Shown here one piece after another: positions 1-63,900 of a stretch of 64,000 nt of DNA (positions within the stretch are counted from its first letter, which is position 1; every line of letters begins with the position of its first letter). The stretch comes from a virus, in IMG/VR virus record IMGVR_UViG_3300030116_007024, positions 1-64,000 of that record. The stretch is one strand, 5' to 3'. The notes below the pieces were generated by a model. That model worked only from the letters and a program-made list of their open reading frames with translations, had not been told where the DNA came from and searched no databases. The position numbers were made by a program, and so were the translations under genes.

Positions 1-539
1 TCACAAAGAAGAATCAACCGCATATATTATTAGATACTTTAAAATTAAACACTAAGAAATTTATAGCAGATGGCTCGGCAACTTTTGATATTTCTAATAT
101 TAAAACTCATGTAAATTATAATGAAATAAGTGTTTTTACACAACGTTTATTTTCGCAATATAAGTTATTTTATAAAAATCAGTTTTCAACAATACTTGAA
201 AACCAAGAACAGTTTCATACAATTCAAGTAGCATTGCCAGAAAAATATGCAGACTTAGCAATTTGGCAAGAACAAGTAGAACTAGATTATAAAACCAACA
301 TATATTCAAAACGTTATGCTTGTATGTCGTCTATTAAAAACTTTGCAAAGTACGATATTTTAGATGACTATATACTATTATATTGTGTAAACAAAAACAA
401 TACAAACGATTTAATAGATATTATACGAATACCTATATTAGAAATAAAAAACGAACGAGTGTATAACTTTTGGGTTAACACAAATAAAGATGTACACTTT
501 CTTCATAATCACCAAAAAATCTTAATGGGCATACAATGA
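1..539 (+). CDS. Hypothetical protein, 5'-truncated by the window edge
   Basis: The frame of ORF 234..539 is open back to position 3 (TKKNQPHILLDTLKL...). Its stop overlaps the next ATG (ATGA). Confidence 0.75.
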   Translation, partial: TKKNQPHILLDTLKLNTKKFIADGSATFDISNIKTHVNYNEISVFTQRLFSQYKLFYKNQFSTILENQEQFHTIQVALPEKYADLAIWQEQVELDYKTNIYSKRYACMSSIKNFAKYDILDDYILLYCVNKNNTNDLIDIIRIPILEIKNERVYNFWVNTNKDVHFLHNHQKILMGIQ

Positions 540-1507
540 AAGTACCAATTACAGAATACGATGTTGTATTCATTAGTTATGATGAGCCCAATGCTGATGA
601 TAACTATGCGGATTTAATTAATAAAATTCCATGGGCTAAACGTTCACATGGAGTATGGGGAAGCGATGCCGCACATAAAGCGGCCGCGGAAATGGCTGAA
701 ACTGATAGATTTATTGGCATTGATGCTGATAATATTATTGATCCTGAATTTTTAAACATTGAATTAGATAATACAACAATTGATCTGTCTATTGATGTTA
801 TTAGCTGGAGTGCTAAAAATCAAGTAAACGGTTTAGTATATGGCAATGGAGGAATCAAGTGTTGGCCAAAAGTGGTTGTTGAGAATATGATGACACATGA
901 AAATGCCAATTCTAAGGAAGGACAAGTAGATTTTTGTTGGGACATACATTATGTGCAAATGAATAACATTTATAGCACAATTTTTAATAATGCAACTCCG
1001 TATCAAGCATATAGAGCAGGCTTTCGTGAAGGCTGTAAAATGAGTTTAGATATGGGAGATGTGGTACCTATAGACCAATTTAAAAAACGAGTACACTATA
1101 AAAATTATAAACGATTATTAGTATGGATGTCTGTTGGTGCAGATACATTAAATGGTTGGTGGTGCATGTATGGTGCTCGCCTAGGATGCTGGATGACAAA
1201 CTTTGAACGAGATAACTGGAATTGGGTCGATGTTCGAGATTTTGAATGGCATACACGTTACTGGAAAGAGAATATTGTTCCACAATTTGAAAACAAAGAA
1301 GGTATTGGTGTAACATGTACTCACACAGGGTGGACATATGACTTTGATAAATTAATATCTGAAACATGTAGAATAGGTGCGGATTTAAGATCAGAATTAA
1401 ATTTAGAAATTGCCGATCTTGATGATTTAGGTAGTAAATTCTTTAAAGAAACTTACACAAATCCGCCACGAACCGCCCCACTAATTAGAGAAGATCAAAT
1501 ATTATGA
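536..1507 (+). CDS. GT-A-like glycosyltransferase (paralog of 21877..22605)
   Basis: N-terminal DVVFISYDE, HGVxGxxxAHK, DxD motif (IDADN), NGLVYGNGGIK, AGFREGCK. Confidence 0.7.
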   Translation: MKVPITEYDVVFISYDEPNADDNYADLINKIPWAKRSHGVWGSDAAHKAAAEMAETDRFIGIDADNIIDPEFLNIELDNTTIDLSIDVISWSAKNQVNGLVYGNGGIKCWPKVVVENMMTHENANSKEGQVDFCWDIHYVQMNNIYSTIFNNATPYQAYRAGFREGCKMSLDMGDVVPIDQFKKRVHYKNYKRLLVWMSVGADTLNGWWCMYGARLGCWMTNFERDNWNWVDVRDFEWHTRYWKENIVPQFENKEGIGVTCTHTGWTYDFDKLISETCRIGADLRSELNLEIADLDDLGSKFFKETYTNPPRTAPLIREDQIL

Positions 1508-3012
1508 GTATATTAAATGAAAATTGGGAAAAAAGAGGTAATTATGTAGTTCATTCGTCGCATAATTTTGAATTAATGAAAAACAAACAAAACGAAATAG
1601 GTCCTGGATTTTGTATAGCAAAGTGGAATCAAGTTTCGTTACATTTAGAAACAGGATTGACACATAGTTGTCATCATCCGACAGCTCATGAAATACCGTT
1701 AGCAGAATTATCAATAGATCCTTCTGCATTACACAATACAGAGTTTAAAAAACAACAAAGAAAAGCTATGCTTGAAGGTAATAGGCCTAAAGAATGCGAT
1801 TATTGTTGGCGTGTCGAAGATCAAAATCAGTATAGCGATCGGCAAATGAAAACTATCGAGCCTTGGGCATTAAAAGATTTTGATGACATAAGTTTAATGA
1901 CCGGTGATGAAAATGTTCCTCCAAAATATTTAGAAGTTAGTTTTACTAATGCATGTAATCAAAAATGTATATATTGTGGACCTGAATTTAGTACGGCTTG
2001 GATAGAAGAATTGAAGGAACAAGGACCGGTAGTAGTTCTAAAAGAACATAATAACTTTAAACGTATAGAGCAAGGATGGCAAAATTTAGATGATCTTTAT
2101 TATAAAAAAAATCAAACCAATCCTTATATAGATGCATTTTGGAAATGGTTTCCAGAAATTTATGATAAATTAGAAATATACAGAATAACAGGAGGCGAAC
2201 CTTTATTAAGCAAAGATACTTTTAAAAGTATGGAGTTTTTTTTAAAAAATCCCAATACTAATTTAGCATTAGCAATTAATAGTAACCTTAGTGTACCTGA
2301 AAGCGTGTGGTCAAAATTTATAATTTTATGTAAAAAGCTCATTACTTCAAAAGCAATAGGTAAATTAACAATATTTACAAGTATAGAAAGTTGGGGCGAA
2401 CAAGCAAATTATGCTAGATATGGTTTAGATTTTGATATCTATAGACAACGTATAGAAGAAATTGCAAATATAAATGATTTAAGATGTGTTTTTATGTCTA
2501 CTTATAATATTTTAAGTGTACCTTCTTTTTATAAAATATTAGAATGGCAATTAGAGCTAAAGAAAAAATACAATACAATAAATCTAGATAATGAAAAACG
2601 ATCACATTCTTGGTTGATGGGTATAGATATCCCGTACCTTAGACATCCTCAATATTTAGATGTAGGTATTCTCACAGATGATATAAAAGAAAAATATATG
2701 TTACCTTGTTTAGATTTCATGAAAAACAATATTTCAACAAACCATACCGGATTTGAAGAATACGAAATGATTAAGTTTCAACGTATTATAGAATCTATTG
2801 ATATTCCTAAAGAAAATAAAACAAAATTAAGTATACGTAGAGCAAAATTTTATGATGTAATAAATGAAATGGACAAAAGACGAGGTACAAATTTTTTAAA
2901 GACTTTTCCTGAATTAAAAGAATTTTATTTTGAATGTGAAAAAAATAGGAATATGATAAAATATGCGGTAAATGTAATGGCAGATGGAGAAGCATATGAG
3001 TACAGTTCATAA
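1504..3012 (+). CDS. Radical SAM protein with N-terminal Twitch-like domain (SCHHP subtype)
   Basis: CNQKCIYC and TGGEP; N-terminal FCIAKW...SCHHP...CDYCW; C-terminal DKRRGTNFLKTFPEL. Confidence 0.92.
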   Translation: MSILNENWEKRGNYVVHSSHNFELMKNKQNEIGPGFCIAKWNQVSLHLETGLTHSCHHPTAHEIPLAELSIDPSALHNTEFKKQQRKAMLEGNRPKECDYCWRVEDQNQYSDRQMKTIEPWALKDFDDISLMTGDENVPPKYLEVSFTNACNQKCIYCGPEFSTAWIEELKEQGPVVVLKEHNNFKRIEQGWQNLDDLYYKKNQTNPYIDAFWKWFPEIYDKLEIYRITGGEPLLSKDTFKSMEFFLKNPNTNLALAINSNLSVPESVWSKFIILCKKLITSKAIGKLTIFTSIESWGEQANYARYGLDFDIYRQRIEEIANINDLRCVFMSTYNILSVPSFYKILEWQLELKKKYNTINLDNEKRSHSWLMGIDIPYLRHPQYLDVGILTDDIKEKYMLPCLDFMKNNISTNHTGFEEYEMIKFQRIIESIDIPKENKTKLSIRRAKFYDVINEMDKRRGTNFLKTFPELKEFYFECEKNRNMIKYAVNVMADGEAYEYSS

Positions 3013-4504
3013 AGCATTTTTAGAGCCTACTATTAGCTATATTAAACGAGTTCTCAATTCAAAAAGTAAATCATTTTGCGGAGCAAAATGGTATAATGCA
3101 ACTATATGGCTAGGACAAGGAGTTAATTCTAGTTGTCACCATCCACCTCCGCATCCTATAGACCAAAATGAGATTAAAACTAATTATAAAGCAATTCATA
3201 ATACAAAATATAAAAAAATAGTTCGTAAACAAATGTTAGAAGGAATTCGGCCTTCTGAATGCGAATATTGTTGGAAAATAGAAGATAATAATATTAATAA
3301 TATAAGTGATAGATTTCATAAAAGTGCAGTATATACAGAAAAAGAATTGCGAGATATTACTAAATTAAAATGGAATGAAGATGTAGATTTATTAACATTA
3401 GAAATTGCATTTGATAATAATTGTAATTTTGCATGTAGTTATTGTAATCCTACGTGCTCCACTACATGGAGTAAAGATATAAAAACACATGGTGCATATG
3501 ATAGTTTACAAGGAGCAGATGATGTCGGTTTAACATTTGCTCAAACCGGAGAATGGGCGTTACCACATGGATCAAAAAATGAGAATAATCCTTATGTAGA
3601 AGCATTTTGGAAATGGTGGGATGCTGATTTATGTACTACATTAAAAGAATTGCGGGTAACTGGTGGTGAACCAACTGTTAGTAATAATTTTTGGAAGTTA
3701 TTAGATTGGTGGAAAGAGCATAAAGAATGCCAAGTAATATTAGCAATTAATTCTAATTTAGGTTTTAAATTTGATATATGCGATAAATTAGTTAAAGCTA
3801 GCCATTATATAAACACATGTCATATTTACACAAGTAACGAAAGTTATGGCAAACATGCAGAATACATTAGAGATGGATTAGTTTGGGACCTATGGACTGA
3901 TAATTTAAATATTATAGCAAAACATAGTAGAATAAAATTAATACATATAATGTTTACGATTAATGCATTGTGTTTAGCAAGCATTACAAAATTAATAGAA
4001 TATATTTTTACTTTTCAAGAAACATATAAAGATATTAAAATAGATATGAGTTTTAATATCTTGCGGTGGCCTAGTTTTCAAAGTATTACAACATTACCTA
4101 AATATTTGGTTGAACAAAAAATTAAAGAATTGGAGGAATTTATAGAACATAATAGTCAGCCACCATATTTTAAGGAAGGTTTAAAAAGTCATCAAGTAGA
4201 TAGATTAACTACTTTAATAAATTATTTAAAAAACGAAGTTGAAGGATTTGATGGCGCAACCGATTTAACCAAAAGACAACAAAATTTTAAAGCATTTTAT
4301 ACTCAATACGATCAACGCAGAAATAAATCTTTTATTGATACATTTGCTGATTGGCCAGAATTAGTTAAATGGTATAATTCTTTAGATTATGAATTTGTAC
4401 CTCAAGAACAAACTAGCGGTGTTCAACCTAAAAATGATCATTATGAAAGAGTGTTAAAGGAAAATAAGGAACAGGTACTTCTCCTTATGGAGGAAAGTAT
4501 GTAG
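2984..4504 (+). CDS. Radical SAM protein with N-terminal Twitch-like domain (SCHHP subtype), tandem paralog of the previous gene
   Basis: CNFACSYC and TGGEP; FCGAKW...SCHHP...CEYCW; NPYVEAFWKW shared with the previous ORF. Confidence 0.92.
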   Translation: MEKHMSTVHKAFLEPTISYIKRVLNSKSKSFCGAKWYNATIWLGQGVNSSCHHPPPHPIDQNEIKTNYKAIHNTKYKKIVRKQMLEGIRPSECEYCWKIEDNNINNISDRFHKSAVYTEKELRDITKLKWNEDVDLLTLEIAFDNNCNFACSYCNPTCSTTWSKDIKTHGAYDSLQGADDVGLTFAQTGEWALPHGSKNENNPYVEAFWKWWDADLCTTLKELRVTGGEPTVSNNFWKLLDWWKEHKECQVILAINSNLGFKFDICDKLVKASHYINTCHIYTSNESYGKHAEYIRDGLVWDLWTDNLNIIAKHSRIKLIHIMFTINALCLASITKLIEYIFTFQETYKDIKIDMSFNILRWPSFQSITTLPKYLVEQKIKELEEFIEHNSQPPYFKEGLKSHQVDRLTTLINYLKNEVEGFDGATDLTKRQQNFKAFYTQYDQRRNKSFIDTFADWPELVKWYNSLDYEFVPQEQTSGVQPKNDHYERVLKENKEQVLLLMEESM

Positions 4505-11908: not shown

Positions 11909-11940
11909 ACCATAAATTTAATTTTATGAACCATAAATTT
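11903..11940 (+). repeat. 17-bp direct repeat (TTATGAACCATAAATTT x2, 21-bp period) duplicating a start codon
   Basis: Read directly; it gives MNHKFNF-MNHKF. Confidence 0.85.
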
Positions 11941-12699: not shown

Positions 12700-12701
12700 A
12701 T

Positions 12702-15018: not shown

Positions 15019-15029
15019 AAGGATAATTT

Positions 15030-16235: not shown

Positions 16236-16237
16236 TA

Positions 16238-45235: not shown

Positions 45236-45238
45236 ATA
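45231..45238 (+). promoter_or_regulatory. T4-type late promoter consensus TATAAATA
   Basis: Exact consensus 20 nt upstream of ATG 45259, in one of the few intergenic gaps. Confidence 0.65.
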
Positions 45239-47915: not shown

Positions 47916-47916
47916 A

Positions 47917-51837: not shown

Positions 51838-51846
51838 GGAAGAATA

Positions 51847-54471: not shown

Positions 54472-55162
54472 TAAACGGAACTGTATCTCTAAGTATTTTC
54501 TTTGTTTTTTCTGTAGGATCGCCTGTTATTTGCAACATAGGTCTATCCTCCCAGCTCATGTTAAAAGTTGAATGCGGAACTGAGATCCAATCAAACCACC
54601 AAGTATCCCCTGAACGCCATCTATCTAAAAAGTAATTACCGAACAATACACCTTGTCCAGGTTCCCAGTCTCTTAAAAATACAAGGAATCTTACTGTTTT
54701 ACTAGTTCTATCACTTTTTAATACATTTTCTTTTGTAGGCTTTCCTGGCAGGTTATCTACATGCCAAAGTAAATTATCTGTCGGATATTGTACATTATAT
54801 TTCCATGTATAATTTTCTAATTCAAAATACTCAAATGCTTTTCGCATATTAGGAAAATTATCTAACGAAATATCTTTTTCTCGCTTAGGCCAAACAACTG
54901 ATCTAAACATAGGTTGATCTGGATTTCCGCCTAAATCTCTAAGTTCTTTATCTTCTACTACATTTCCTTTAGAAGGCTTATTTGAAGAATGTCCATAATT
55001 TTGTTTATTATACGGAGCATCTTCTACATATTTGTTTGCTTCAGGCCACTCGTTACTAAAATCAAAAAGAAATCGTCCACAACGTTTAAAAAATCCGTTA
55101 GGACTATCTACGTGCCATTTCTCGAAGTGATACACTTTCCTTTCCTTTATACAATGCGGCAC
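54461..55162 (-). CDS. Fe(II)/2OG dioxygenase-like protein
   Basis: NVQYP..LLWHVD, VRFLVFLRDWEPGQ, PHSTFN...RPMLQITG. Confidence 0.75.
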   Translation of the reverse strand: MPHCIKERKVYHFEKWHVDSPNGFFKRCGRFLFDFSNEWPEANKYVEDAPYNKQNYGHSSNKPSKGNVVEDKELRDLGGNPDQPMFRSVVWPKREKDISLDNFPNMRKAFEYFELENYTWKYNVQYPTDNLLWHVDNLPGKPTKENVLKSDRTSKTVRFLVFLRDWEPGQGVLFGNYFLDRWRSGDTWWFDWISVPHSTFNMSWEDRPMLQITGDPTEKTKKILRDTVPFTIE

Positions 55163-55781
55163 TTACGGTTGGTTCATGAATTTCGTAAGGCGGGTCCTTA
55201 ATATAATTTATCATCTCTGGCCAATTTCGTGTAAGCCAATTATCAGTATTAATTCCTTTTTGCCATTGTATATTATGCTTCTTTGTAAATTGAGCAATGC
55301 ATCTTGTTTCTACATTAATTTGACGCCACATCATTTCTTCTGTGCCATACCATTTATATGTAGGATATTGAATATGCCATCCGCCCGCTTCAAACCACCA
55401 ATCAAAACATATTTGTGGAGGTCTTAACACTAATAAAATATCTATTTCTGGTAAGTTTTCTGTGATCCAATCTAGTTGGTACGAAAACCAATGACATCTA
55501 CAGAAACGTATACAATTATCTGCATCAGCATCTAAATGAGCTTTATCAATTTCTGTAAATATTTCTTCTCTTGTTAATAAATGCAAGTTGTCAAAGTTTT
55601 CGCCACATTCATGGAATGGTCCAAAAAAAGCATGAGCATGATTACTATGATTTTCTGGATTATCTATACGCCATGGCGTATTGTCTGAACTGTCAACAAT
55701 AGTTGTTGATTGGCTTAACCATTTAGAAAGACCGGCCCATTTAGATCCTGGTGGACCGGTTACAAAGACATATTTAATCAT
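55104..55781 (-). CDS. P-loop sulfotransferase/kinase-like protein
   Basis: YVFVTGPPGSKW, RCHWF, LLVLRP. Confidence 0.6.
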   Translation of the reverse strand: MIKYVFVTGPPGSKWAGLSKWLSQSTTIVDSSDNTPWRIDNPENHSNHAHAFFGPFHECGENFDNLHLLTREEIFTEIDKAHLDADADNCIRFCRCHWFSYQLDWITENLPEIDILLVLRPPQICFDWWFEAGGWHIQYPTYKWYGTEEMMWRQINVETRCIAQFTKKHNIQWQKGINTDNWLTRNWPEMINYIKDPPYEIHEPTVSAALYKGKESVSLREMARR

Positions 55782-56400
55782 GTTTTTTCCACCACCAAAC
55801 CATGCATAAAGGAAACTTTACTTTTGCCGCTTCTTCGCGGGTTTTGTATAAGTGATGAGGAGCATGAGCCATCTCAGTTTCTGGTTCCTTATGCATACTA
55901 ACATTACTGAGTTGTTCAGTCATTTTATATGCATCGTCAAGAGTCCAATTAAAACTTATAAATCCTTTATTTTCTTGTTCTTTTTCAGGTGGTATAGCAC
56001 TACCTAATCGTGCCCGGCATATGACAAACCCTCCTGGTTTTGTCCAATTAACACATGCCTCTAATTGTTTATATATTCTGTTATAATCGCCGAAGTTAAT
56101 GCTACCTAATGCAAGGACTGCATCAGCACAATCCTTGCCAAAGATATTATGTTTTACAACATCTTCAAACGATAGGTTTAAATCAACAGTATCATAAACA
56201 GTAGCAGGATCAAACCCTACTACGTTAGGCACTTTTCCTTTATATGGATTTGTTCCGCAACCAGCATCAATAATTAAATTAGGATTTAATGCAGTTAACT
56301 CAGCAATTAAGTTATTACTAGTTAATTCATGTGTTTCCCATTCTAGATGCCTGTAAGGCTTTTGGTTAAAATGTTCTACTACTGTATTATGATAGTCCAT
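55774..56400 (-). CDS. Class I SAM-dependent methyltransferase
   Basis: IIDAGCGTN, VGFDP, ADAVLALGSINF, TKPGG. Confidence 0.85.
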   Translation of the reverse strand: MDYHNTVVEHFNQKPYRHLEWETHELTSNNLIAELTALNPNLIIDAGCGTNPYKGKVPNVVGFDPATVYDTVDLNLSFEDVVKHNIFGKDCADAVLALGSINFGDYNRIYKQLEACVNWTKPGGFVICRARLGSAIPPEKEQENKGFISFNWTLDDAYKMTEQLSNVSMHKEPETEMAHAPHHLYKTREEAAKVKFPLCMVWWWKKHD

Positions 56401-56401
56401 G

Positions 56402-57496
56402 TTAATTTAAGAGCTCTTCTTTAAGAGTTGCTTTGTAACCCAACCCTTCGTTAACAAAACGTACTGCAACTTCAAGAGCACCTCTGTCAACTAAACCTAA
56501 AACTCGTGACATGACAAGTTCTGCATCACGCCCAACAAAAGCATCATAATTGCCTAATTTTGCAATTCGCTCTTCTTGGAAGGCCGGATCGTTCCATGTA
56601 GCCTTGGTAATCTTAACCATATCATTGGTATACTTACTACCTTTATTAATGAATAAACTCTTTTGTACTCCATCTCTCCATAGACGGGTTAGTACATAAC
56701 CATCATAAACAGTACCTGCAGGCTTCCTGCCCCATCTTGCTTCAAATACATCGTCAAAGCACATTCCTTTGAGTTGATCATTAGGATCATCAACCCATGT
56801 TGCAGTATTGTAATTCATCTGACAATGATGAAACCAAAGTTTAACTTTGTCTAAGTTGTCCTGATAAACTGCATTACCACTCCAATGTTGCCATGTTTCA
56901 CGACCTACTGACAATTCGCCATTAACAAGAGCTTGTTGTCTGCCGGATTTCATACCACGTACAATGATAACTTTTTCATCAAAGCATGCCATAAACTTAT
57001 CCATATTATCAGTAAATGGACACACCATTAATGCGGCCGCCCAGTGATCTGGCTCAGAACCGCCACCAGGATTAAGTGCTGATTTTTGAATGTCTGTTTC
57101 CGGATTATAATTTATATTGACAGGAACAAGCATGTTTCCTGGATGAATCATAATAGGAGTATATTTTCTAAAGTCATATCCTCCTACATCCTCAAGTAAT
57201 GTAGACACGGCATTACCACCATGACTTACTTGCATATGAGTAGGATCATGTCGTAATTGATTATGAAATGCTCTTAAGGATTTTTTACCTCGATTTCCAA
57301 TTACATACTTAAAATCAACTTTAGAAACAATTGAACCCTGATGAATATTATTATTCATGTGCTTGGCCCAAAGCCACGCCCATCTTGTTGTGCCACCTGG
57401 TTTAGGTCTTCCAGGAATTACTGCCCACATAGTTTCAGCAACTACCGCAGTAGAAATAAGAAGCATTGTAGCTAATACAAAATACTTTTTAAACAT
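56402..57496 (-). CDS. tctC: Tripartite tricarboxylate transporter substrate-binding protein (TctC/Bug-like, divergent)
   Basis: Signal peptide (MFKKYFVLATMLLISTAVVA), VIPGRPKPGGTT, directly downstream of tctA. Confidence 0.65.
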   Translation of the reverse strand: MFKKYFVLATMLLISTAVVAETMWAVIPGRPKPGGTTRWAWLWAKHMNNNIHQGSIVSKVDFKYVIGNRGKKSLRAFHNQLRHDPTHMQVSHGGNAVSTLLEDVGGYDFRKYTPIMIHPGNMLVPVNINYNPETDIQKSALNPGGGSEPDHWAAALMVCPFTDNMDKFMACFDEKVIIVRGMKSGRQQALVNGELSVGRETWQHWSGNAVYQDNLDKVKLWFHHCQMNYNTATWVDDPNDQLKGMCFDDVFEARWGRKPAGTVYDGYVLTRLWRDGVQKSLFINKGSKYTNDMVKITKATWNDPAFQEERIAKLGNYDAFVGRDAELVMSRVLGLVDRGALEVAVRFVNEGLGYKATLKEELLN

Positions 57497-58934
57497 AATT
57501 TACCTTTATTTTATTTGAAAATATTACCATCATTATTGATAATCCAATTACTATCATAACAAATGGTCTAGTTATTATTTGATAAAAATCATACATATCA
57601 TATAATTGATATGTGTATTCTTCGACTTTACTGCTGAGTATAAAACCAAGCAAAATTGCCGGTCTGCTGATGCTATAATACTTACATGCAAAGCCAAAAG
57701 CGGAAAATAACAAAAACATTAATGTATCTTCCAATATTGAGCTATAAAAATTTGTTGATATACAAGCCCACCATGTTACAATTATTATTGTAACAATAAA
57801 GAAATATTTATTAACACGTAAAATAGTTGATAACGGCCCTGCTAACAATAGTGACATTACTACTGTTACTATAAGAGCAATAAAGTATGAACTAAAAACT
57901 GTATTAATAAATTTTTGATCTTCCAGTAAGTAAGATTCACCTATTGGAAAACCAACAAATTGCCAAAGTCCCATAATAATCATTGTCCATGTAGACCCTG
58001 GTATACCTAACAGTAAAGTAGGCATTAACGCACCTGCTTTACCTGCATTATTAACACCCTCTGGTGCTACTAATCCCTCTGGTGCTCCTTTACCAAACGG
58101 AGTTTTAAATTTTCTTTTTAATTTTGTACCTATACCATATGAAAGCCATTCGGAACCCAGACCTCCATATCCTGGTAAGCATCCATAAAAGAAGCCTATT
58201 GCACCGCCTAAAAAACTATGTCGCCATAAACGAAAAGCATCTTTCACACCTTCTTTAATTTGGGTGAAATTGCTAACATGTTTTTCATATTTTATATCTG
58301 TTTTCCATAGAGACCATAATTCCGGAATACAAAAAAATCCTGTGGCTATAATTACTACACTAATACCATCATAAAAGTAGTCGTCGTGTCCAAATGTAAA
58401 TCTTGGATTACCAACGACATCGGATCCTATGGTTCCTAATCCAATTCCTATTGCTACTGCAATAATTCCTTTAAAAAAGCTACTTGTTAATAAACTTACG
58501 GTTAAAAAACTAAAAACAATAATACACCATATCTCTGGTATCATTAATAAATGTACATAATTTAGATATACTGGAAGTATTATCATAACAGGAATAACCC
58601 ATATTAATCCTTGTAAACCGCTTGTTGTAACTGCAAGAGCTATTGCATACGAACTTCTACCTTCCTTAGTCATTGGAAAGCCTTCTACCATAGTTGCGGC
58701 CGCAGAGTTAGCACCTGGTACACCTATGTATACACCAGCAAAACTATCACCTATTGTACATGAAATAGCCGCCGCCATGCTGAATGCAACAAACTCGTAA
58801 GGCATTCCCCAGAAATATGTTGCAATACTGAATAATAAAATTAGTGCTTTATTTGATCCTGAGGATGGTATAATACCAATAAAGAGTCCGTATAGCGTGC
58901 CTATAAAGGCAAACGACACAATACTTAAATCCAT
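57489..58934 (-). CDS. tctA: Tripartite tricarboxylate transporter permease TctA
   Basis: Polytopic membrane protein with G(V/I)PG repeats, AATMVEGFPM, PRFTFG, GCLPGYGG, APEGVNNA, PTLLLGIPGS, RPAILLGFIL. Confidence 0.93.
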   Translation of the reverse strand: MDLSIVSFAFIGTLYGLFIGIIPSSGSNKALILLFSIATYFWGMPYEFVAFSMAAAISCTIGDSFAGVYIGVPGANSAAATMVEGFPMTKEGRSSYAIALAVTTSGLQGLIWVIPVMIILPVYLNYVHLLMIPEIWCIIVFSFLTVSLLTSSFFKGIIAVAIGIGLGTIGSDVVGNPRFTFGHDDYFYDGISVVIIATGFFCIPELWSLWKTDIKYEKHVSNFTQIKEGVKDAFRLWRHSFLGGAIGFFYGCLPGYGGLGSEWLSYGIGTKLKRKFKTPFGKGAPEGLVAPEGVNNAGKAGALMPTLLLGIPGSTWTMIIMGLWQFVGFPIGESYLLEDQKFINTVFSSYFIALIVTVVMSLLLAGPLSTILRVNKYFFIVTIIIVTWWACISTNFYSSILEDTLMFLLFSAFGFACKYYSISRPAILLGFILSSKVEEYTYQLYDMYDFYQIITRPFVMIVIGLSIMMVIFSNKIKVNYV

Positions 58935-58955
58935 TTATTTTTATTTTATTTAGGC

Positions 58956-59010: not shown

Positions 59011-59016
59011 AAAATT

Positions 59017-59035
59017 TATTTATCTTTTATTTATA
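59017..59035 (-). promoter_or_regulatory. Late-promoter-like boxes upstream of the tct operon
   Basis: TATAAATA on - at 59028-59035 and GATAAATA on - at 59017-59024. Confidence 0.55.
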
Positions 59036-59354
59036 GATATTCGTTATACAAATCTTCTGTTACACGAACAAAATTATTATCATCACCAACTTCTCCCCAA
59101 TTAGGAGTTTCCGTTTTTGCAGTAATAAAATCAAGTTCGTTGTTCCATTCTACTTTCATTAGTACTAGTTTTTTATTTGACGATAAGGTAAACTCTGGGT
59201 TAATTCCATACGTTGGTGTAACATTAGTATTAATCCAATTCTTTACAGTATCAAGCTCATTTATGGTTTCAAACTCAGTTATATCTGTATATATCCTGTC
59301 GGTATTGTCGAAAAAGTTCTTCCCATAAATAAACATGTACACAGTATACGCCAT
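59031..59354 (-). CDS. Small acidic hypothetical protein (107 aa), weakly similar to 61912..62211
   Basis: Intact ORF filling the gap; FTLSSNKKLVLMKVEWNN vs IALTSSNDGFVVTRTWTD. Confidence 0.7.
   Translation of the reverse strand: MAYTVYMFIYGKNFFDNTDRIYTDITEFETINELDTVKNWINTNVTPTYGINPEFTLSSNKKLVLMKVEWNNELDFITAKTETPNWGEVGDDNNFVRVTEDLYNEYL
59325..59331 (+). promoter_or_regulatory. Late-promoter-like ATAAATA upstream of the radical SAM/SPASM cassette
   Basis: About 21 nt upstream of ATG 59353, inside the opposite-strand ORF. Confidence 0.4.
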
Positions 59355-60252
59355 GATTAACCACCTAAATTTAGAATTATTCGGAGGATGTAATTACACT
59401 TGTAAAATATGTCCTCAAGGTATTTATCAGAGAGAGAAACCATTTCTTACACATTTACCGTTTAAGTTTGCAACAGATATAATAGAACATGCACAAATGC
59501 ATGGCATTAAATCTGTGAGCTTACAGGGCTCTGGTGAACCAATTCTTTACAAAAAGTTAAAAGAAATTATAAGTTTTTGTAAAAAACTAGGTCTAAAATC
59601 TTATATAACAACCAATTTAAGCACAAAAAACGTCCAAGAACTTGAAGAATTATTTGACGCAGGACTAACAAGTATTCGTGTTAGTTTCATTGGATATGAT
59701 GCTAAGACGTATAACGAGTGGATGGGCCAAGATAAATTCCATGATGTGTACGATAAAGTTTGTGCCATGTATAATTATAACATATCTGTTAACTGTATTG
59801 CAATCGAAAAATACTGGTTAAATGAATATAAATTATTGTTCGATAACAAAGTTAAATTTGTTGTATGGAATAAGCATAACTGGTCTGGACAACTAAGTCA
59901 AGAAGAATCTAACGAACCTTGTCCTAAAGTATCGTGGCCTGTTTTAAATGTAAGAGCTGGTGGTTTAGATGGACATAAAGGTGCCGTTGTACCATGTTGC
60001 AATGTATTAGGTCAAGATAGTAAAGCCGTGCTAGGACATTTAGATGTAAATACAATATCTGAAATATGGAACGGCAAAGCATATAATAAGTTTAGAAAAA
60101 AGCACAAGGAAGGTAAAGCACATAAGATTGATGTTTGCAAAAACTGCGATCAACGAAGTGCAAGCAGGGATGCTCTACTTTATAGTAACTATGATATAAC
60201 ACAACGAGAGAATCATTCTGTATGGTTAGAGAATTATCGTTTGCGGAAATAA
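59353..60252 (+). CDS. Radical SAM protein with C-terminal SPASM/Twitch domain
   Basis: CNYTCKIC, QGSGEP; C-terminal PCPK...VPCC...LGHL...EIWNG...CKNC. Start moved to ATG 59353. Confidence 0.93.
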   Translation: MINHLNLELFGGCNYTCKICPQGIYQREKPFLTHLPFKFATDIIEHAQMHGIKSVSLQGSGEPILYKKLKEIISFCKKLGLKSYITTNLSTKNVQELEELFDAGLTSIRVSFIGYDAKTYNEWMGQDKFHDVYDKVCAMYNYNISVNCIAIEKYWLNEYKLLFDNKVKFVVWNKHNWSGQLSQEESNEPCPKVSWPVLNVRAGGLDGHKGAVVPCCNVLGQDSKAVLGHLDVNTISEIWNGKAYNKFRKKHKEGKAHKIDVCKNCDQRSASRDALLYSNYDITQRENHSVWLENYRLRK

Positions 60253-60692
60253 AAGAAATTTGGGCAAAGGATCTTTGGAACGAAAAGTACAAAATAGAAG
60301 TGTTCAAAGACGGGCAGTTTCAACCTCAAGAAATTAAACCAATGAGTTGTATGGTGTTTAATAATTTACAACGTCTTGATGAAAATATATTTAAATTATA
60401 TACTCCTTTATTTTTAGGGTACTATAATAATGGTATAAAGGCGGTTAATTCAGGTCATAAAACGTCTGTATTACATTACCGTACTAGAGGAGCATGGTGT
60501 GATATGGATTGTAGACGCAAAGGATACAGCCATGAGATAATGAAAGTACTAGAAGAAGATGCTAAAAAACAACATGCAGAAATGATGTGGACATTTTCAA
60601 AAACATCCAGCATTCCTTTTTATGAAAGTTGTGGCTTTGAAAAAACAGGCCAAGGTAACGACACCAATTGGTATATGTACAAATATGTTTAA
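60222..60692 (+). CDS. GNAT acetyltransferase
   Basis: YRTRGAWC...RRKGYSHEI, SIPFYESCGF. Confidence 0.85.
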   Translation: MVRELSFAEIKEIWAKDLWNEKYKIEVFKDGQFQPQEIKPMSCMVFNNLQRLDENIFKLYTPLFLGYYNNGIKAVNSGHKTSVLHYRTRGAWCDMDCRRKGYSHEIMKVLEEDAKKQHAEMMWTFSKTSSIPFYESCGFEKTGQGNDTNWYMYKYV

Positions 60693-61365
60693 GAAGATTT
60701 CATTAACCACAGGTTTTTATTTAGAAACCTCTGGTACTACTGGCAAGCACAAAAAAATATTTCATACACCTGAACGTTTAAAAGCATCAAACAAAGCAGG
60801 TGTTGATTCTCAACAATTAACTAGCAAATCTAAAGTATTAACTGTATGCTCATTAAAACATGCAGGTGGCACAACTGCACAATCATTACCTGCAATAAGT
60901 GTAGGTGCTGAAGTAGTAGTTAAAAAATTTAATGCATTTACTTTTCATAACGATATTAAAGGATATACACATACACATTTAACTCCAGGTTTTTGTGAAT
61001 TATTAATGCGAAATAAAAACTGGGATAAACTTGATTTAACTGGTGTATGGGTTACATGTGGATCCGATTCAGTTTATCCATCTGTTATACAAGCATTTGT
61101 AAATAAAGGTGCTACGTTTATGTGTAATTGGGGTATGACAGAAGTTGGACCTTGTGCAATTAATAGAGTATTTGAGCCAAATAAAGAAGTAGGGTTATTA
61201 AATTATCCTTACTTAGGCAACAGATATTATTGTGATTATCGTATAGTTAATAATATATTGGAAGTAAAAGGCGATATCGTTTATGTTGACGATTGGTTTA
61301 GTACTGGCGATTTAGTAACACATGACAATGACGGACTCTGGTATCACGGTAGAAGTTCTAAGTAA
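60685..61365 (+). CDS. Minimal adenylate-forming (ANL/AMP-binding) enzyme lacking the C-terminal subdomain
   Basis: ETSGTTGKHK (A3), WGMTEVGP (A5), STGDL (A7), GR (A8), then stop. Start moved to ATG 60685. Confidence 0.82.
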   Translation: MFKKISLTTGFYLETSGTTGKHKKIFHTPERLKASNKAGVDSQQLTSKSKVLTVCSLKHAGGTTAQSLPAISVGAEVVVKKFNAFTFHNDIKGYTHTHLTPGFCELLMRNKNWDKLDLTGVWVTCGSDSVYPSVIQAFVNKGATFMCNWGMTEVGPCAINRVFEPNKEVGLLNYPYLGNRYYCDYRIVNNILEVKGDIVYVDDWFSTGDLVTHDNDGLWYHGRSSK

Positions 61366-61894
61366 ACATAGAAAAGACTTTGTTCAATTAAAAGAATTTT
61401 GTAAAGTTTGTGCTACAAAAGGATACAGAAATAATGTTGATTTTGGAAAATTAAAACTTAACAAAATGGTACCTCCTTATGGACAATATTGGGTTGTTAA
61501 AAGAGATAATAAAATTATTTGTTTAAGTGGTTGCCATAAGTTTCCTGAAATAGACGATACTTCTTACAGAATTTTATTTAGAGCAGTAGGTTTAGAAACA
61601 CGTACTGGATTAAGTAGATATCATTTTAATAGTTTACCATTTTATTGGCATGTAAGACCACAAGTAGAATGGATTAAAAAACAAGGTGGAGAACGTTTCT
61701 TTATAACTACACAAACAGATGAAGGCAGTGATGTATCGGGTAAAATGTTTAGGATGGATAAAGTTATGCATTTACTTGAAAAACAAGGAATACTAAAATT
61801 AGAAACTATTCTAAAAATAGGATACACTAAAGAACATATTTGGGAATTAAATTATGACAAATATTTGTCTAAAAGGTTTAATAAATATGCTTAA
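61322..61894 (+). CDS. GNAT-fold-like hypothetical protein
   Basis: YWVVKRDNKIICLSGCH...YRILFRA...WIKKQGGERFFITT strand/helix pattern. Confidence 0.55.
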   Translation: MTMTDSGITVEVLSKHRKDFVQLKEFCKVCATKGYRNNVDFGKLKLNKMVPPYGQYWVVKRDNKIICLSGCHKFPEIDDTSYRILFRAVGLETRTGLSRYHFNSLPFYWHVRPQVEWIKKQGGERFFITTQTDEGSDVSGKMFRMDKVMHLLEKQGILKLETILKIGYTKEHIWELNYDKYLSKRFNKYA

Positions 61895-61904
61895 TAAATT
61901 GGAG
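61880..61904 (+). promoter_or_regulatory. Late-promoter-like AATAAATA plus GGAG RBS for the 99-aa gene
   Basis: AATAAATA at 61880-61887; GGAG at 61901-61904, 7 nt before ATG 61912. Confidence 0.55.
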
Positions 61905-61911
61905 TATTATA

Positions 61912-62211
61912 ATGGCAGTAACACAAACTGTTACATTAACAAAAGATGGTGCTACGTTTGGTAGTGCTACCGAAGCCGCTAATCTTTTTATATCTGAATG
62001 TGATGCAGATTCACAACTCACTACCAACAAAACATATAACGAAAACGCCATTGAATCAGGAGATATGATTGAATCTATTGCCTTGACATCCTCAAATGAT
62101 GGATTTGTTGTCACCAGAACATGGACAGATGCAAAATATGCCGAAGCACAATCAACAAAATCTCCACTTACGTTGGGTAGTGGTTGGACAAAAACAAACG
62201 TTATATCTTAA
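61912..62211 (+). CDS. Small Ser/Thr-rich protein (99 aa), possibly structural or a modification substrate
   Basis: Clear RBS; about 28 of 99 residues are Ser/Thr; no enzyme motif. Confidence 0.8.
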   Translation: MAVTQTVTLTKDGATFGSATEAANLFISECDADSQLTTNKTYNENAIESGDMIESIALTSSNDGFVVTRTWTDAKYAEAQSTKSPLTLGSGWTKTNVIS

Positions 62212-62212
62212 T

Positions 62213-62818
62213 CTAGTAGTATCCAAACGCCCGGACCTTTTCATTACACCACCAACACTTCTTACATGGCCTTGGCGGATGCATAGTTTCACAACTTACT
62301 GTTAATTTCACTAATTCTTCTAAATTATGTTTTACACAAAGTTTAGCGATATCTTTTTTATTAATTTTTGAAAGAGGACTATAACTTTGTATGTTATTAA
62401 ATATAATATTTTTAAATGGTTGTCCTGGATAATCACGATGTACATCACGTTCTTCCGTTAAAAATTCTGGATCAATAGGATTCAAAGAAAACCCGTTACT
62501 CCATGCATTTAAGTTAAACGTATTAGTAAGAAGTTTTACTTGTTTTTCTTTATTAGCCCTTGCCTCAGTTTTGTTTTTAACATGGGCTATTTCGTGGGCT
62601 ATAATAGAACAATCAGTTTTTTCTTTAACCCAACCAACAACATTTTTGGCATTTAATTCATTATCTTGGCCATCGTTTGCTCTTACTACGGTATATACAA
62701 GAAATTGACTTTTTAAATATTTTGCCATTAGATAAAACAGAATAGCACTATCAATACCACCACTAAGAAATATCCCATATCGAATATTATCAGGCATTAT
62801 TTCTATATTAGTTTCCAC
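62213..62818 (-). CDS. QueC-like N-type ATP pyrophosphatase with C-terminal Zn motif
   Basis: FLSGGIDSA PP-loop, PLSKINKKDI, TVSC...PCKKCWWCNEK. Confidence 0.82.
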   Translation of the reverse strand: METNIEIMPDNIRYGIFLSGGIDSAILFYLMAKYLKSQFLVYTVVRANDGQDNELNAKNVVGWVKEKTDCSIIAHEIAHVKNKTEARANKEKQVKLLTNTFNLNAWSNGFSLNPIDPEFLTEERDVHRDYPGQPFKNIIFNNIQSYSPLSKINKKDIAKLCVKHNLEELVKLTVSCETMHPPRPCKKCWWCNEKVRAFGYY

Positions 62819-63900
62819 AACGATTCTCTACTATTATGCATTGTTTTGTTGATTGCCTCTTTTACTGTTATACCATTATACTCAGTAATACAATGATCAT
62901 TACCATATGCAACCATATTTGAATTATAACTGTTTAATGTTTCTAAAAATGTTTTTACTGATTGAAAACTCTGTTCAGATGTTTTTAAAATGCTTCCTGG
63001 TAATCTTTTGAGAGCACCGTTCCACCAAAACGTAGATACTTTTTTATTTGGATTGTGTTTATTTAAAATGTTTATTAATGACTTATTATCATTAAGGTTA
63101 CAAAAATGATAATAATGATTGCATTGTTTATACTTTTTCCAATGCTCTAGCCAGTTGGTATCAAATGTTTGTTCCATATGTTCTAAACATTGACTTGAGA
63201 TAGACTTAGAAAACATGTTTAATAAAGGAAATTTTTTATGTAAATGCTCAACCCATAAATTAAAATCTTGTCCATCCCAATGTTCTATAGTATATCTTCT
63301 AATACGTAGGCTAGGTTTACTAATATCAATGTGATGTATATTTGCATCGTCCTTAAATCCATTATTGTAAAGAACATAATTAATATAAAATCCACTACTT
63401 ACAGTCATTGCCCATTCTATTTCTTTGTTAAATGATTTAGGAGTTGGTATTTCGTTATGCATAATGTAACATGTATTGCTATTTTTTAATAATAAATCAA
63501 TAGCACTTTCGTGGGTTGCTGAGAATGTATCTTCAGATGACGAATCAATAAACGGCAAGGGCCAGTTTAATGTTAATTCTTCTCTACCTTTTCCTCCGGG
63601 TTTTATTATAGTAACAGTTGGAGTATCTTTAAAGTTAATATACTCTGCATTACTTTTTTTGATAGGTTCATGCATCTGTTCTTCATAAAAAGTGTATGGT
63701 ATAATAGTTCCACTATCAACAATTATTACATATTCATATCTATAGATATTAACTAAATTCGCATCATTTGTTATTATGAATTCAAAGTCAGGTTTATTAA
63801 TTCGATTGCCCATGCAATAGTCAAAATTTAACTGAGTATAATTTAAAGCGATGTTAGAAATCCAATCACTTTTTTTAGTAATAATTACAAATGCTCTCAT
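62803..63900 (-). CDS. Uncharacterised protein, family X
   Basis: YVIIVDSGT, TVSSGF, HHIDISKPSLRIRRYTIEHWDG (compare KKHIIKNWDG in 42110). Confidence 0.7.
   Translation of the reverse strand: MRAFVIITKKSDWISNIALNYTQLNFDYCMGNRINKPDFEFIITNDANLVNIYRYEYVIIVDSGTIIPYTFYEEQMHEPIKKSNAEYINFKDTPTVTIIKPGGKGREELTLNWPLPFIDSSSEDTFSATHESAIDLLLKNSNTCYIMHNEIPTPKSFNKEIEWAMTVSSGFYINYVLYNNGFKDDANIHHIDISKPSLRIRRYTIEHWDGQDFNLWVEHLHKKFPLLNMFSKSISSQCLEHMEQTFDTNWLEHWKKYKQCNHYYHFCNLNDNKSLINILNKHNPNKKVSTFWWNGALKRLPGSILKTSEQSFQSVKTFLETLNSYNSNMVAYGNDHCITEYNGITVKEAINKTMHNSRESLWKLI

Follow-up and report, generated by a model that had tools for sequence, protein, structure and literature searches.

An island rich in radical SAM genes in a probable jumbo phage is organised around a core also present in Bdellovibrionota

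Introduction

What might a phage make with at least 62 kb of soluble cytoplasmic modifying enzymes, encoded by approximately 55 to 60 genes? The question was raised by the window analysed here, the 64-kb stretch of DNA that forms the first part of a 98.8-kb IMG/VR virus contig. A sequence-only reading had described it as a probable jumbo-phage cluster of tailoring enzymes for a modified glycan or virion coat, the host surface, or DNA. Sugar and amino acid modification clusters of 8 to 12 genes have been described from cyanophages, with capsule decoration or a secondary metabolite proposed as their role (Iyer, Anantharaman, Krishnan, Burroughs, Aravind 2021, PMC7824862, section 3.4.10); the word "radical" does not occur in that paper. 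Glycans are carried by mycobacteriophage capsids and tails (Freeman et al. 2023, as cited in PMC12619734), and metavirome gene clusters with cytoplasmic GT-A and GT-B enzymes have been assigned to DNA glycans in a study silent on radical SAM enzymes (Pyle et al., bioRxiv 10.1101/2023.12.21.572611). We found no paper in the literature that describes an island such as this one.

Results

Origin and layout of the island. The contig encodes PolB, FEN, and ThyX, and the PolB is 43 to 47% identical to those of jumbo phages (Atu_ph07 and the RaK2/121Q group, phages of 285 to 490 kb). A 499-amino-acid ORF is 36% identical to a protein of the PA5oct group, T4 Gp23 capsid genes were found in four of the five larger contigs that have the core described below, and CheckV gave a completeness of 28%, which corresponds to a genome of approximately 350 kb, where jumbo phages are those above 200 kb (relatives of 203 to 246 kb were 56 to 67% complete). 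Together these results support the proposed jumbo-phage origin, with the contig as a fragment. Classification by marker genes succeeded in part: PolB pointed to jumbo phages, and no capsid, terminase, or tail hallmark gene was found on the 98.8-kb contig. The window is probably part of the approximately 350-kb genome of an uncultured T4-like jumbo phage.

The window contains 70 ORFs, 60 of them on the + strand, that cover 99% of its sequence (Table 1). The translationally coupled arrays noted earlier show overlaps at 51 of 62 same-strand junctions, an upper bound given the use of longest-ORF starts. Family searches also bore out the claims that nearly every recognisable gene encodes a soluble tailoring enzyme and that many have local paralogs; approximately 20 ORFs had no family assignment. 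The ORF cut by the contig end, whose homologue in sister phage G001 has 331 amino acids, had no Pfam or phage match. As had been stated, Pfam detected no PKS/NRPS, regulator domain, or Wzx/Wzy/ABC exporter in the window, and the sole multi-pass membrane protein was TctA, an importer with 8 hydrophobic segments. No initiating lipid-carrier transferase was matched by Pfam in the window either, and by this measure the window is not an EPS/LPS export locus.

The motif TATAAATA, which we take to be the T4 late promoter, was depleted in the window (6 copies versus 26.8 expected). Of 11 copies contig-wide, however, five fall in the approximately 1% of DNA that is intergenic, and 4 of these 5 are followed, 8 to 94 nt further on, by a start codon in the same orientation. 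In the sister phage, a copy lies 36 nt ahead of the ORF chain that enters the island. From this placement, late expression of the island is only plausible.

Table 1. Features of the window, with the evidence for each
Position	Strand	Feature	Evidence
3..539	+	C-terminal part of ORF cut by contig end	91% identical to G001 7752-8054
536..1507	+	GT2-like (GT-A) protein, paralog of 21877-22605	Paralogy, ESM Atlas, DGD motif
1504..4504	+	Two N-twitch radical SAM genes (1504-3012, 2984-4504)	NF033640 310, 293 bits
4505..5671	+	Radical SAM without N-twitch, Cys-rich C-terminus	Pfam Radical_SAM 31.5 bits
5664..11908	+	AT-rich block: three GT-B (GT10-like) paralogs (5664-7301, 7766-9022, 10565-11908), sulfotransferase, two ORFs without family	GC 0.25
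9754..10584	+	Sulfotransferase	Sulfotransfer_2 E 1e-4; 23 bits, cutoff 22
11905..13250	+	Two ORFs	No family match
13247..14299	+	Radical SAM, divergent N-twitch-like	Pfam 32 bits; NF033640 59 bits (below cutoff)
14296..15018	+	DUF6071 protein	Pfam E 5.5e-11
15030..19436	+	Sugar-nucleotide cassette	Pfam
19433..20926	+	O-carbamoyltransferase (NodU/CmcH/TobZ family)	Carbam_trans_C 3.7e-53, Carbam_trans_N 9.6e-42
21053..25521	+	Core-associated genes: two paralogs (21053-21880, 23704-25521) and core GT2-like 21877-22605	
22573..23718	-	ORF without family, within 21053..25521	
25518..26733	+	Two 2OG-Fe(II) oxygenase paralogs (25518, 26104)	2OG-FeII_Oxy_3 E 0.004; HxD...H...R conserved
26639..27796	+	Core radical SAM without N-twitch	Counterparts in viral loci and Bdellovibrionota
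28249..33772	+	Four N-twitch radical SAM (28249, 29964 = core, 31342, 32462); SDR-like (29399-29971)	NF033640 373, 398, 268, 302 bits
33755..34582	-	Conserved ORF	Homologs in G001, G002, Bdellovibrionales locus L016
34625..36008	+	SGNH-like ORF (weak); third 2OG oxygenase paralog (35409-36008)	Lipase_GDSL_2 E 0.006; paralogy, motif
36005..37054	+	Amidinotransferase	PDB profile search
37702..42126	+	N-twitch radical SAM 37702, PLP-dependent enzyme 38907, N-twitch radical SAM 39818 and 40924	NF033640 263, 220, 325 bits
42110..45235	+	Family X 42110-43603, cupin hydroxylase 43591-44373, short family X paralog 44357-45235	Hydroxylase: Asp_Arg_Hydrox 2.8e-17
45231..45238	+	TATAAATA	21 nt 5' of start at 45259
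45259..48861	+	Three ORFs	No family match; conservation in G001 only
48858..50021	+	Core radical SAM, third type	Pfam 49 bits
49924..54471	+	Two cupin hydroxylase paralogs (49924, 50625), nitroreductase, fourth 2OG oxygenase paralog (51847), ORF without family, GNAT (53701)	
54461..58934	-	Five-gene operon: three ORFs without family, TctC-like ORF, TctA permease	TctA E 1.5e-80
59035..59028	-	TATAAATA	Precedes TctA operon
59031..62211		Separate small cassette: radical SAM with C-terminal SPASM (59335), GNAT (60222), split AMP-binding enzyme, two small ORFs	
62213..63900	-	PP-loop ATPase (QueC/Asn-synthase-like) and family X paralog	

Radical SAM enzymes. The earlier count of 14 radical SAM genes was exact, since each product has the CX3CX2C motif and matches Pfam or NCBIfam. 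Nine exceeded the curated whole-protein cutoff of NCBIfam NF033640 (N_Twi_rSAM, N-terminal twitch; 170 bits), one of which (2984-4504) had no Pfam match. The products of 4505-5671, 13247-14299, 26639-27796, and 48858-50021 scored below the cutoff and were excluded from that family; the first is 31% identical to the third, which is of the same class, and no counterpart of the second was found in G001. In the nine NF033640 proteins, an auxiliary Cys domain (C..PW...CC...CxxC) lies ahead of the CX3CX2C core, with C15, C73, and C76 of the N-twitch domain invariant, and in seven proteins Pfam placed SPASM (residues ~6 to 90) N-terminal to Radical_SAM (~110 to 290). NF033640 is catalogued under a name with no function assigned, and we found no paper on it in the literature. 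Identity of the paralogs reached 66% with a counterpart in another genome versus 24 to 32% with paralogs in their own. For every paralog the nearest relative was such a counterpart, and the copies therefore have distinct roles; the paralogs are old.

The conserved core. A conserved core underlies the layout of the island and comprises a GT2-like gene, a radical SAM gene, and an N-twitch radical SAM gene, with or without an SDR gene and a third type of radical SAM gene. To it the lineage has added more of the old N-twitch paralogs, the sugar-nucleotide cassette, transferases of GT-B and GT-A-like type, and decorating enzymes. When synteny was checked in relatives, 79 viral loci besides this one were compared and 68 had the core in identical order; the core was also common to hundreds of other phage contigs and was present, with its order recurring, in Bdellovibrionota chromosomes, which carry 12 to 24 NF033640 genes apiece. 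Both this shared core and the catalogued status of the radical SAM family had been overlooked by the sequence-only reading. Counterparts of 29964-31361 were found in all 79 viral loci (median identity 64%; 55 to 59% with Bdellovibrionota proteins), those of 26639-27796 at 40% identity or more in 74 (median 61%; 47 to 49%), and those of 48858-50021 in 49 (median 67%; 55 to 65%). The GT2-like 21877-22605 had counterparts in 68 loci (median 48%) and the family of 21053-21880 was found in 73, and both also occur in Bdellovibrionota loci. Among 132 ORFs surrounding the Bdellovibrionota arrays, 42 were radical SAM genes and 2 had Pfam GT2 matches; with so few GT2 genes, the radical SAM enzymes do not require a sugar-rich neighbourhood. 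In the sister phage, a virion structural protein of PA5oct has a 25% identical match (E 1e-12) in an ORF approximately 6 kb upstream, and some of the ORFs upstream are also found next to the core in 4 to 12 other loci, which hints weakly that the island may be linked to structural genes.

Decorating enzymes and sugar-nucleotide genes. Approximately 10 2OG oxygenases had been claimed, and seven were verified by the HxD...H triad: four resembling 2OG-FeII_Oxy_3 (25518, 26104, 35409, and 51847) and three resembling Asp/Arg hydroxylases of the cupin type (43591, 49924, and 50625). Two of them (43591 and 50625) passed the Pfam cutoff, and the other five were paralogs or had sub-threshold scores. 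The amidinotransferase, a member of the GME superfamily with H213, D215, H324, C334, and D338 invariant, matched HsvA (6.5e-54), StrB1 (6e-50), AGAT (6e-49), and SxtG (3e-48) in a profile search against the PDB, and its alignments to StrB1 and SxtG were full-length. The PLP-dependent enzyme scored 20.1 bits against Aminotran_1_2 (cutoff 19.7) with an invariant S-x-x-K, and amidinotransferase, radical SAM, and PLP genes were neighbours in four lineages (G001, G002, L006, and L016). The sugar-nucleotide cassette encodes an NDP-sugar 6-dehydrogenase (UDPG_MGDP_dh_N, 7e-19), an Rpe-family epimerase (Ribul_P_3_epim, 4e-25), a SnoaL-like protein (SnoaL_2, 6e-9), a SIS isomerase (SIS, 9e-8), a HAD-like phosphatase, and a nucleotidyltransferase fused to a kinase-like domain; matches to NTP_transf_3, an APH/GntI-like domain, and HAD_PNKP were weak.

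The list of transferases given earlier stood by family or profile for the carbamoyl-, amidino-, and sulfotransferases and the GNATs, by fold or feature for glycosyltransferases, and by fold only for methyltransferases. Approximately six proteins were glycosyltransferase-like at this fold or feature level, which is not that of a curated family threshold (three GT-B, two GT2-like, and one GT-A/methyltransferase-like fusion family), and no glycosyltransferase Pfam match in the window reached E 0.01 or better. The 536-1507 protein, with a conserved DGD motif, matched viral clusters auto-named "Glycosyltransferase 2-like" in the ESM Atlas (0.99), and PF00535 or PF13641 was present in 5 of 120 homologs among the matches listed. 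The AF2 model of the 7766-9022 protein (pLDDT 70.6, pTM 0.79) suggested a GT-B fold, with Helicobacter pylori alpha1,3-FucT as the top VIA match (Z 11.4), tied with T4 BGT (10.9) and T4 AGT (10.6). GT10 membership was defined by FxxxE(N/T)...TEK plus a curated family match; F.IV.ET...F.TEK is present, and Pfam Glyco_transf_10 gave no match to the GT-B proteins at E 0.01 or better. One metagenome protein joins a UDP-glucose dehydrogenase to this GT-B family. Family X (845 representatives; AF2 model of 42110-43603, pLDDT 76.8) is predicted to fuse a GT-A-like N-domain to a methyltransferase-like C-domain, the latter fold matching 6ulo over residues 279 to 493 (Z 11.6).

Discussion

The product of the island is most likely sugar-derived, and on balance we favour a system in which soluble enzymes build and edit that product on a cytoplasmic acceptor. 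The cassette (SIS isomerase, kinase/nucleotidyltransferase fusion, HAD phosphatase, and 6-dehydrogenase) would supply an activated sugar of the heptose or hexose type, or a uronate. HygY, NeoN, and AprD4 are twitch/SPASM radical SAM enzymes that tailor sugars in aminoglycoside pathways, and BtrN is a sugar-type dehydrogenase. The auxiliary-cluster domain found here is homologous to the BtrN twitch domain (E 2.5e-4), but it is permuted to the N-terminus, and beyond the Cys domain the proteins hardly resemble each other. By analogy, the N-twitch enzymes may act on sugars, taking C-H hydrogen atoms for oxidation, epimerisation, deoxygenation, or branching; sugar chemistry is an analogy here because the substrate of no NF033640 member is established. 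An N-twitch enzyme with the neighbouring PLP enzyme and amidinotransferase could convert a hydroxyl via a ketone and an amine to a guanidine, as in aminoglycoside pathways, although the island differs from these in having no cyclitol synthase and its sugar substrate is putative. The oxygenases, carbamoyltransferase, sulfotransferase, and GNATs would add further groups, and the glycosyltransferase-like proteins would link units onto an acceptor present in the cytoplasm. Radical SAM enzymes are oxygen sensitive and 2OG oxygenases require oxygen, and the two therefore need not share one substrate.

The same trio would also suit a biosynthetic cluster for a free aminoglycoside- or aminocyclitol-like molecule with guanidino, carbamoyl, and sulfo groups, made in the infected cell to commandeer the host or hold back competitors and in Bdellovibrionota to act against prey. 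We consider this possible but unlikely. The StrB1 and SxtG matches, the PLP enzyme and BtrN-like radical SAM enzyme beside the amidinotransferase, the TobZ-family carbamoyltransferase, the SnoaL-like, nitroreductase, AMP-binding, and GNAT genes, and the presence of the core in bacterial chromosomes, which have no virion, all fit such a molecule, as does the secondary metabolite proposed for the smaller cyanophage clusters (PMC7824862, section 3.4.10). Against it, Pfam matched no enzyme that forms a cyclitol (2-deoxy-scyllo-inosose synthase or inositol-phosphate synthase), searches of the window revealed neither an exporter nor a self-resistance gene, and approximately six glycosyltransferase-like genes exceed the usual need of such molecules. 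Moreover, we know of no virus-encoded antibiotic pathway.

It is more doubtful that peptides or proteins are the substrates of the radical SAM enzymes, through RiPP-like maturation or direct tailoring of virion proteins, with the sugar genes as a separate module. Most characterised SPASM/twitch relatives that scored are peptide maturases (anSME, PapB, DynA, and SkfB), yet every peptide-maturase model scored far under its cutoff. The Bdellovibrionota arrays are nearly all radical SAM, and proteins are the substrates of Asp/Arg beta-hydroxylase-like oxygenases; against this, a GT2-like gene is always part of the core, and Pfam detected no RRE/PqqD domain in the window. Small ORFs adjoin a radical SAM gene, the one with a C-terminal SPASM, only in the side cassette at 59031-62211, and the main arrays, with overlapping genes and almost no spacers, have no precursor-like small ORF.

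Remodelling of the host LPS or capsule, which would block superinfection, has a precedent put forward for cyanophage glycosyltransferase clusters (PMC7824862) and would employ the sugar-nucleotide genes, glycosyltransferase-like proteins, and sulfotransferase. We regard it as improbable and disfavour a host-surface polysaccharide as target because the membrane enzymes are absent: the window lacks an initiating lipid-carrier transferase, a flippase, a polymerase, and a ligase, and the + strand arrays have no membrane protein. A lytic T4-like phage also has little time for surface renewal. Least probable is glycan hypermodification of the phage DNA, which the tie of the GT-B model with T4 DNA glucosyltransferases and the QueC-like PP-loop ATPase and ThyX on the contig might suggest, but which is disfavoured because no C5-methyltransferase or TET/JBP, nor a hydroxymethylase or DpdA/TGT, was found on a 99-kb contig that is 28% of the genome (PF00145 and PF12851 gave no match, the latter in a search with no positive control), and bacterial chromosomes carry the core too.

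Compared with known systems, the island shares with the cyanophage clusters large T4-like phages as carriers, a carbamoyltransferase, 2OG/cupin oxygenases, a HAD phosphatase, methyltransferases, and glycosyltransferases, and differs in being larger, in carrying 14 radical SAM genes, and in having its core in common with Bdellovibrionota. With virion glycosylation systems it shares virus-borne soluble glycosyltransferases and sugar-nucleotide enzymes, and the modelled family X N-domain superposes on the glycosyltransferases PBCV-1 A64R (Z 9.7) and mimivirus R699 (Z 9.0); those systems, however, have few glycosyltransferases and no radical SAM array, and attachment to the virion is putative here. 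The C5-methyltransferase and 5mYOX/TET that define the phage DNA-glycan clusters were not found on the 99-kb contig. Members of NF033640 have the same N-terminal auxiliary Cys domain as the nine window proteins (220 to 398 bits), and what distinguishes this locus is a nine-copy set inside one phage island.

For the phage product, a glycan on virion proteins takes the largest share of our expectation, well short of half, other forms together take somewhat less, and a free pseudo-oligosaccharide takes the least. What is new is an island built on a conserved core that is also present in Bdellovibrionota chromosomes. Because the same core occurs there, we read it as the maker of an unusual sugar, for which the peripheral transferases would determine the choice of acceptor.

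Composition of the island

Of the 70 ORFs that a simple ORF call placed in the window, 60 were on the plus strand, and the coding density was 99%. The sequence-only reading described translationally coupled arrays; by this call, 51 of the 62 same-strand junctions overlapped, an upper bound. That reading had counted 14 radical SAM (rSAM) genes, and all 14 were found to carry CX3CX2C together with a Pfam or NCBIfam match. Its estimate of about ten oxygenases was too high: seven were verified, comprising a four-member 2OG-FeII_Oxy_3-like family and a three-member Asp/Arg-hydroxylase-like cupin family, and HxD...H was kept in all seven. PKS/NRPS, exporter and regulator genes, which it had reported as missing, were not found in the window, nor was any transcription-factor domain. 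The outline of the island as first described was correct, and the feature is real and large.

The remaining enzymes included a carbamoyltransferase (E 4e-53), an amidinotransferase whose profile matched HsvA (6.5e-54), StrB1 (6e-50), AGAT and SxtG in the PDB, a single sulfotransferase barely above the Pfam cut-off, GNATs, a nitroreductase, an SDR-like protein and a PLP enzyme, for which PDB sequence profiles gave weak aminotransferase matches only. PDB searches with ORF 17208-18629 and with the rSAM at 48858-50021 returned nothing informative. The isomerase, kinase, phosphatase and nucleotidyltransferase of the sugar-nucleotide cassette would together follow the logic of NDP-heptose synthesis.

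The sole multi-pass membrane protein in the window was TctA, an importer with 8 hydrophobic segments. The TctA/TctC pair was also found in the sister phage G001, the more distant phage G002 and a 167-kb, 99%-complete phage (loci L011/L013), and it may serve the oxygenases by taking up a carboxylate, for example 2-oxoglutarate or citrate. Next to this operon lies a separate cassette whose AMP-binding enzyme is without about the first 170 profile positions; the cassette could serve to modify proteins or peptides. Another local feature is a divergent rSAM gene (13247-14299) without a counterpart in the otherwise colinear G001, and therefore a recent gain or loss inside the AT-rich block (GC 0.25 at 6-12 kb).

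Features of the island and its contig (window positions unless stated; ORFs are named by window coordinates)
Feature	Position	Strand	Content or remark
GT2-like pair	536-1507, 21877-22605		second member belongs to the core
GT-B family	5664-7301, 7766, 10565		triplicated
Divergent rSAM gene	13247-14299
Sugar-nucleotide cassette	15030-19436		NDP-sugar 6-dehydrogenase, Rpe-family epimerase, SnoaL-like protein, SIS isomerase, nucleotidyltransferase fused to APH-like kinase domain (weak), HAD-like phosphatase (weak)
21053/23704 family	21053, 23704
rSAM	26639-27796		core
SDR	29399-29971		core, in some loci
N-twitch rSAM	29964-31361		core
Trio	36005-37054, 37702-38910, 38907-39821		amidinotransferase, N-twitch rSAM, PLP enzyme
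Family X	42110, 44357, 62803		GT-A-like and methyltransferase-like fusion
rSAM	48858-50021		core, in some loci
TctA operon	54461-58934	-	TctA permease, TctC-like ORF, three unknown ORFs; TATAAATA ahead at 59035-59028
Separate cassette	59031-62211		rSAM with normal C-terminal SPASM domain, GNAT, AMP-binding enzyme split over two overlapping ORFs (60622-61365, 61322-61894), two small ORFs (107 and 99 aa)
rSAM-like frame	contig 81577-82269 (L002:1577-2269)	-	3 TGA and 1 TAA stops inside NF033640 match

The N-twitch radical SAM family

Nine window proteins scored above the cut-off of NCBIfam NF033640 ("twitch domain-containing radical SAM protein"). In these nine an auxiliary Cys domain precedes the rSAM core, and its sole PDB relative by sequence was the C-terminal twitch domain of BtrN. 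A literature search found no paper on NF033640 and no description of N-twitch rSAM arrays in phages or Bdellovibrionota. The rSAM paralogs each shared 24-32% identity with their nearest paralog in the same genome, against as much as 66% with a counterpart in a distant phage and up to 59-65% with a bacterial protein. Since the counterparts elsewhere are closer than the paralogs within one genome, these results demonstrate that the island paralogs are old, and they are functionally distinct.

Glycosyltransferase-like families

Pfam named no glycosyltransferase, so three families were tested by fold and other features, and the glycosyltransferase calls for all three are at the level of fold, not of family membership. 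The AF2 model of the triplicated family (pLDDT 70.6, pTM 0.79) had a GT-B fold when aligned with VIA-align; its matches to H. pylori alpha1,3-fucosyltransferase (Z 11.4), T4 beta-glucosyltransferase (10.9) and T4 alpha-glucosyltransferase (10.6) were moderate and were counted as ties. A motif of the GT10 kind, F..ET...F.TEK, was present. In the 772-aa metagenome protein P0151, UDP-glucose/GDP-mannose dehydrogenase domains are naturally fused to this family, which links it to nucleotide-sugar metabolism. The family of the GT2-like pair is mostly viral and very large (at least 7,471 clusters among 8,000 candidates scored); its GT2-like name is an automatic one from the ESM Atlas, a few members match PF00535 or PF13641, and a DGD motif is conserved. 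For family X (845 representatives; AF2 model pLDDT 76.8), the N-terminal domain was GT-A-like, matching PBCV-1 A64R (Z 9.7), mimivirus R699 (Z 9.0) and many other GT-A enzymes, and the C-terminal domain was a methyltransferase-like Rossmann fold (6ulo, Z 11.6; CheR, PNMT and INMT, Z about 8). PDB sequence profiles gave no match for any of these three families or for the 21053/23704 family.

The source virus

The window covers bases 1-64000 of one contig, an IMG/VR virus record for which CheckV gave a completeness of 28%, implying a genome of about 350 kb from the 98,776 bp present. The GC content of the window was 25-35%, and neither tRNA genes nor Rfam matches were found in it. The remaining 35 kb of the contig encode a family B DNA polymerase, ThyX, a 5'-3' exonuclease, a MoxR ATPase with a DUF2201 VWA-metallopeptidase, an HtrA-like protease, further rSAM genes and a 499-aa ORF whose full-length alignment with a conserved PA5oct-group protein showed 36% identity. 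In tblastn searches, the DNA polymerase aligned best, across 98% of its length and at 43-47% identity, with sequences of jumbo phages whose sizes span 285-490 kb (Atu_ph07, Phosso, XaC1, Vibrio 2.275.O and the RaK2/K64-1/121Q group). Neither a capsid nor a terminase gene was found on the 98,776-bp contig, and a 780-aa ORF at its end had no match. Five larger IMG/VR contigs with the core (106-246 kb, 30-67% complete) again implied about 360 kb; each carried 8-17 NF033640 matches at E <= 1e-10, the majority exceeding the family cut-off, and a T4 Gp23-type major capsid gene was present in four. The capsid genes and implied size of these relatives, together with the evidence from the contig, make the assignment to a T4-like jumbo phage well supported, though capsid and terminase genes are absent from this contig.

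The replication-side flank (contig 64001-98776; loci L001 and L002) also carries a fatty-acid desaturase and a TauD-family oxygenase adjoining another rSAM gene, and its HtrA-like protease has a PDZ domain. The interrupted rSAM-like frame in this flank adjoins two intact rSAM ORFs and may be a decayed copy.

The late promoter motif

Enrichment in the island of TATAAATA, the T4 late promoter motif cited in the sequence-only reading, was rejected: the window contained 6 copies versus 26.8 expected, a depletion, and the motif was about four-fold rarer on the whole contig than in shuffled sequence. Of the 11 copies on the contig, 5 lay in intergenic DNA, which makes up roughly 1% of the total. Four intergenic copies stood 8-94 nt before a same-strand start codon, and one copy lay ahead of ORF 45259 and one ahead of the TctA operon. 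In G001, a copy was located 36 nt before an overlapping ORF chain running into the island. Such a distribution fits a T4-type late promoter that is functional and kept out of coding sequence; it does not by itself time the expression of the island.

Conservation in phages and Bdellovibrionota

The sister phage G001 (78 kb) was colinear with window positions 234-62211 at 49-99% protein identity and reached 7.7 kb further upstream. That flank contained an ORF with 25% identity (E 1e-12) to a "virion structural protein" of PA5oct, as well as a small ORF that weakly matched a phage-tail domain; its remaining ORFs had no Pfam or phage-database match. G002 had about 40 genes in common with the island, in a different order. 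Orthologs of the core N-twitch rSAM (29964-31361) were present in at least 174 IMG/VR contigs, and in the 79 best loci kept they showed 63-71% identity. Within these 79, its neighbors were the 26639-type rSAM in 74, the 21877-type GT2-like gene in 68, the 48858-type rSAM in 49 and the SDR in 32, and 68 kept the one-strand order GT2-like, rSAM, N-twitch rSAM, with or without SDR and the third rSAM. Only 4 of 50,697 deposited phage genomes had even a weak homolog (RsoM2USA, which has two, Vibrio K566, Vibrio K567 and a marine single-cell virus fragment), and in no case were the surroundings annotated.

The core genes, the 21053/23704 family, a carbamoyltransferase and the trio were also found in assemblies of Bdellovibrionales and Bacteriovoracaceae, on contigs of 0.5-3 Mb. 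The bacterial counterparts were sought by the single pattern CNLKC[RI][MH]C, and the predominance of Bdellovibrionota among the matches listed may partly be a sampling effect. The expansion of NF033640 in five such Bdellovibrionota genomes (12-24 matches per genome) is real. In the Bdellovibrionota genome G009 (a 1.9-Mb chromosome with 16 N-twitch rSAM copies), eight of these genes stand head to tail (locus L053 and G009:C1:792852-803016), with almost no other gene types between array genes. The 132 ORFs around the bacterial arrays included 42 rSAM genes and only 2 Pfam GT2 genes, and the flanks were housekeeping genes. Taken together, these results demonstrate that the core of the island is conserved and shared with a bacterial phylum.

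Possible products of the island

Soluble tailoring enzymes make up the island, on a contig whose assignment to a jumbo phage is well supported. We propose that the core would make an unusual sugar by radical chemistry, that the accessory enzymes would decorate it, and that the glycosyltransferase-like proteins would attach it to a cytoplasmic acceptor. By analogy with BtrN and StrB1 chemistry, the conserved trio fits a route from alcohol to ketone to amine to guanidine. The main caution against this sugar reading is that the bacterial arrays are nearly free of glycosyltransferases.

Two rivals are live. One is a free aminoglycoside-like metabolite. In its fullest form, the virus would encode the whole pathway to a free aminoglycoside-like pseudo-oligosaccharide with guanidino, carbamoyl and sulfo groups, built by an unstudied rSAM family with a core common to the predatory Bdellovibrionota, and both attackers would disable invaded Gram-negative cells with the compound. 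We consider this version improbable; if true, it would be the first virus-borne antibiotic-type biosynthetic cluster and would assign a chemistry to NF033640. The other live rival is modification of proteins or peptides by the island. Present evidence makes glycans on DNA unlikely: neither a C5-methyltransferase nor a TET was found on the contig, which is 28% of the genome. The lack of membrane machinery makes a host-surface polysaccharide unlikely.

The closest account in the literature concerns cyanophage clusters of 8-12 genes with carbamoyltransferase, oxygenase and HAD genes, whose product is unknown (PMC7824862); rSAM enzymes are not mentioned in that paper. We rate the island as a variant of phage sugar or secondary-metabolite tailoring islands.

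Phages are known to have a small number of sugar or "auxiliary" genes. In this phage, about one-sixth of an estimated 350-kb genome is given to one multi-step chemical pathway, whose key rSAM family is named in a database but lacks a known reaction. The conserved five-gene core is a small, testable unit for enzymologists. Be it a virion glycan or a small molecule, the product would bring to light a new layer of phage-host interaction in aquatic systems and probably also new radical carbohydrate chemistry.
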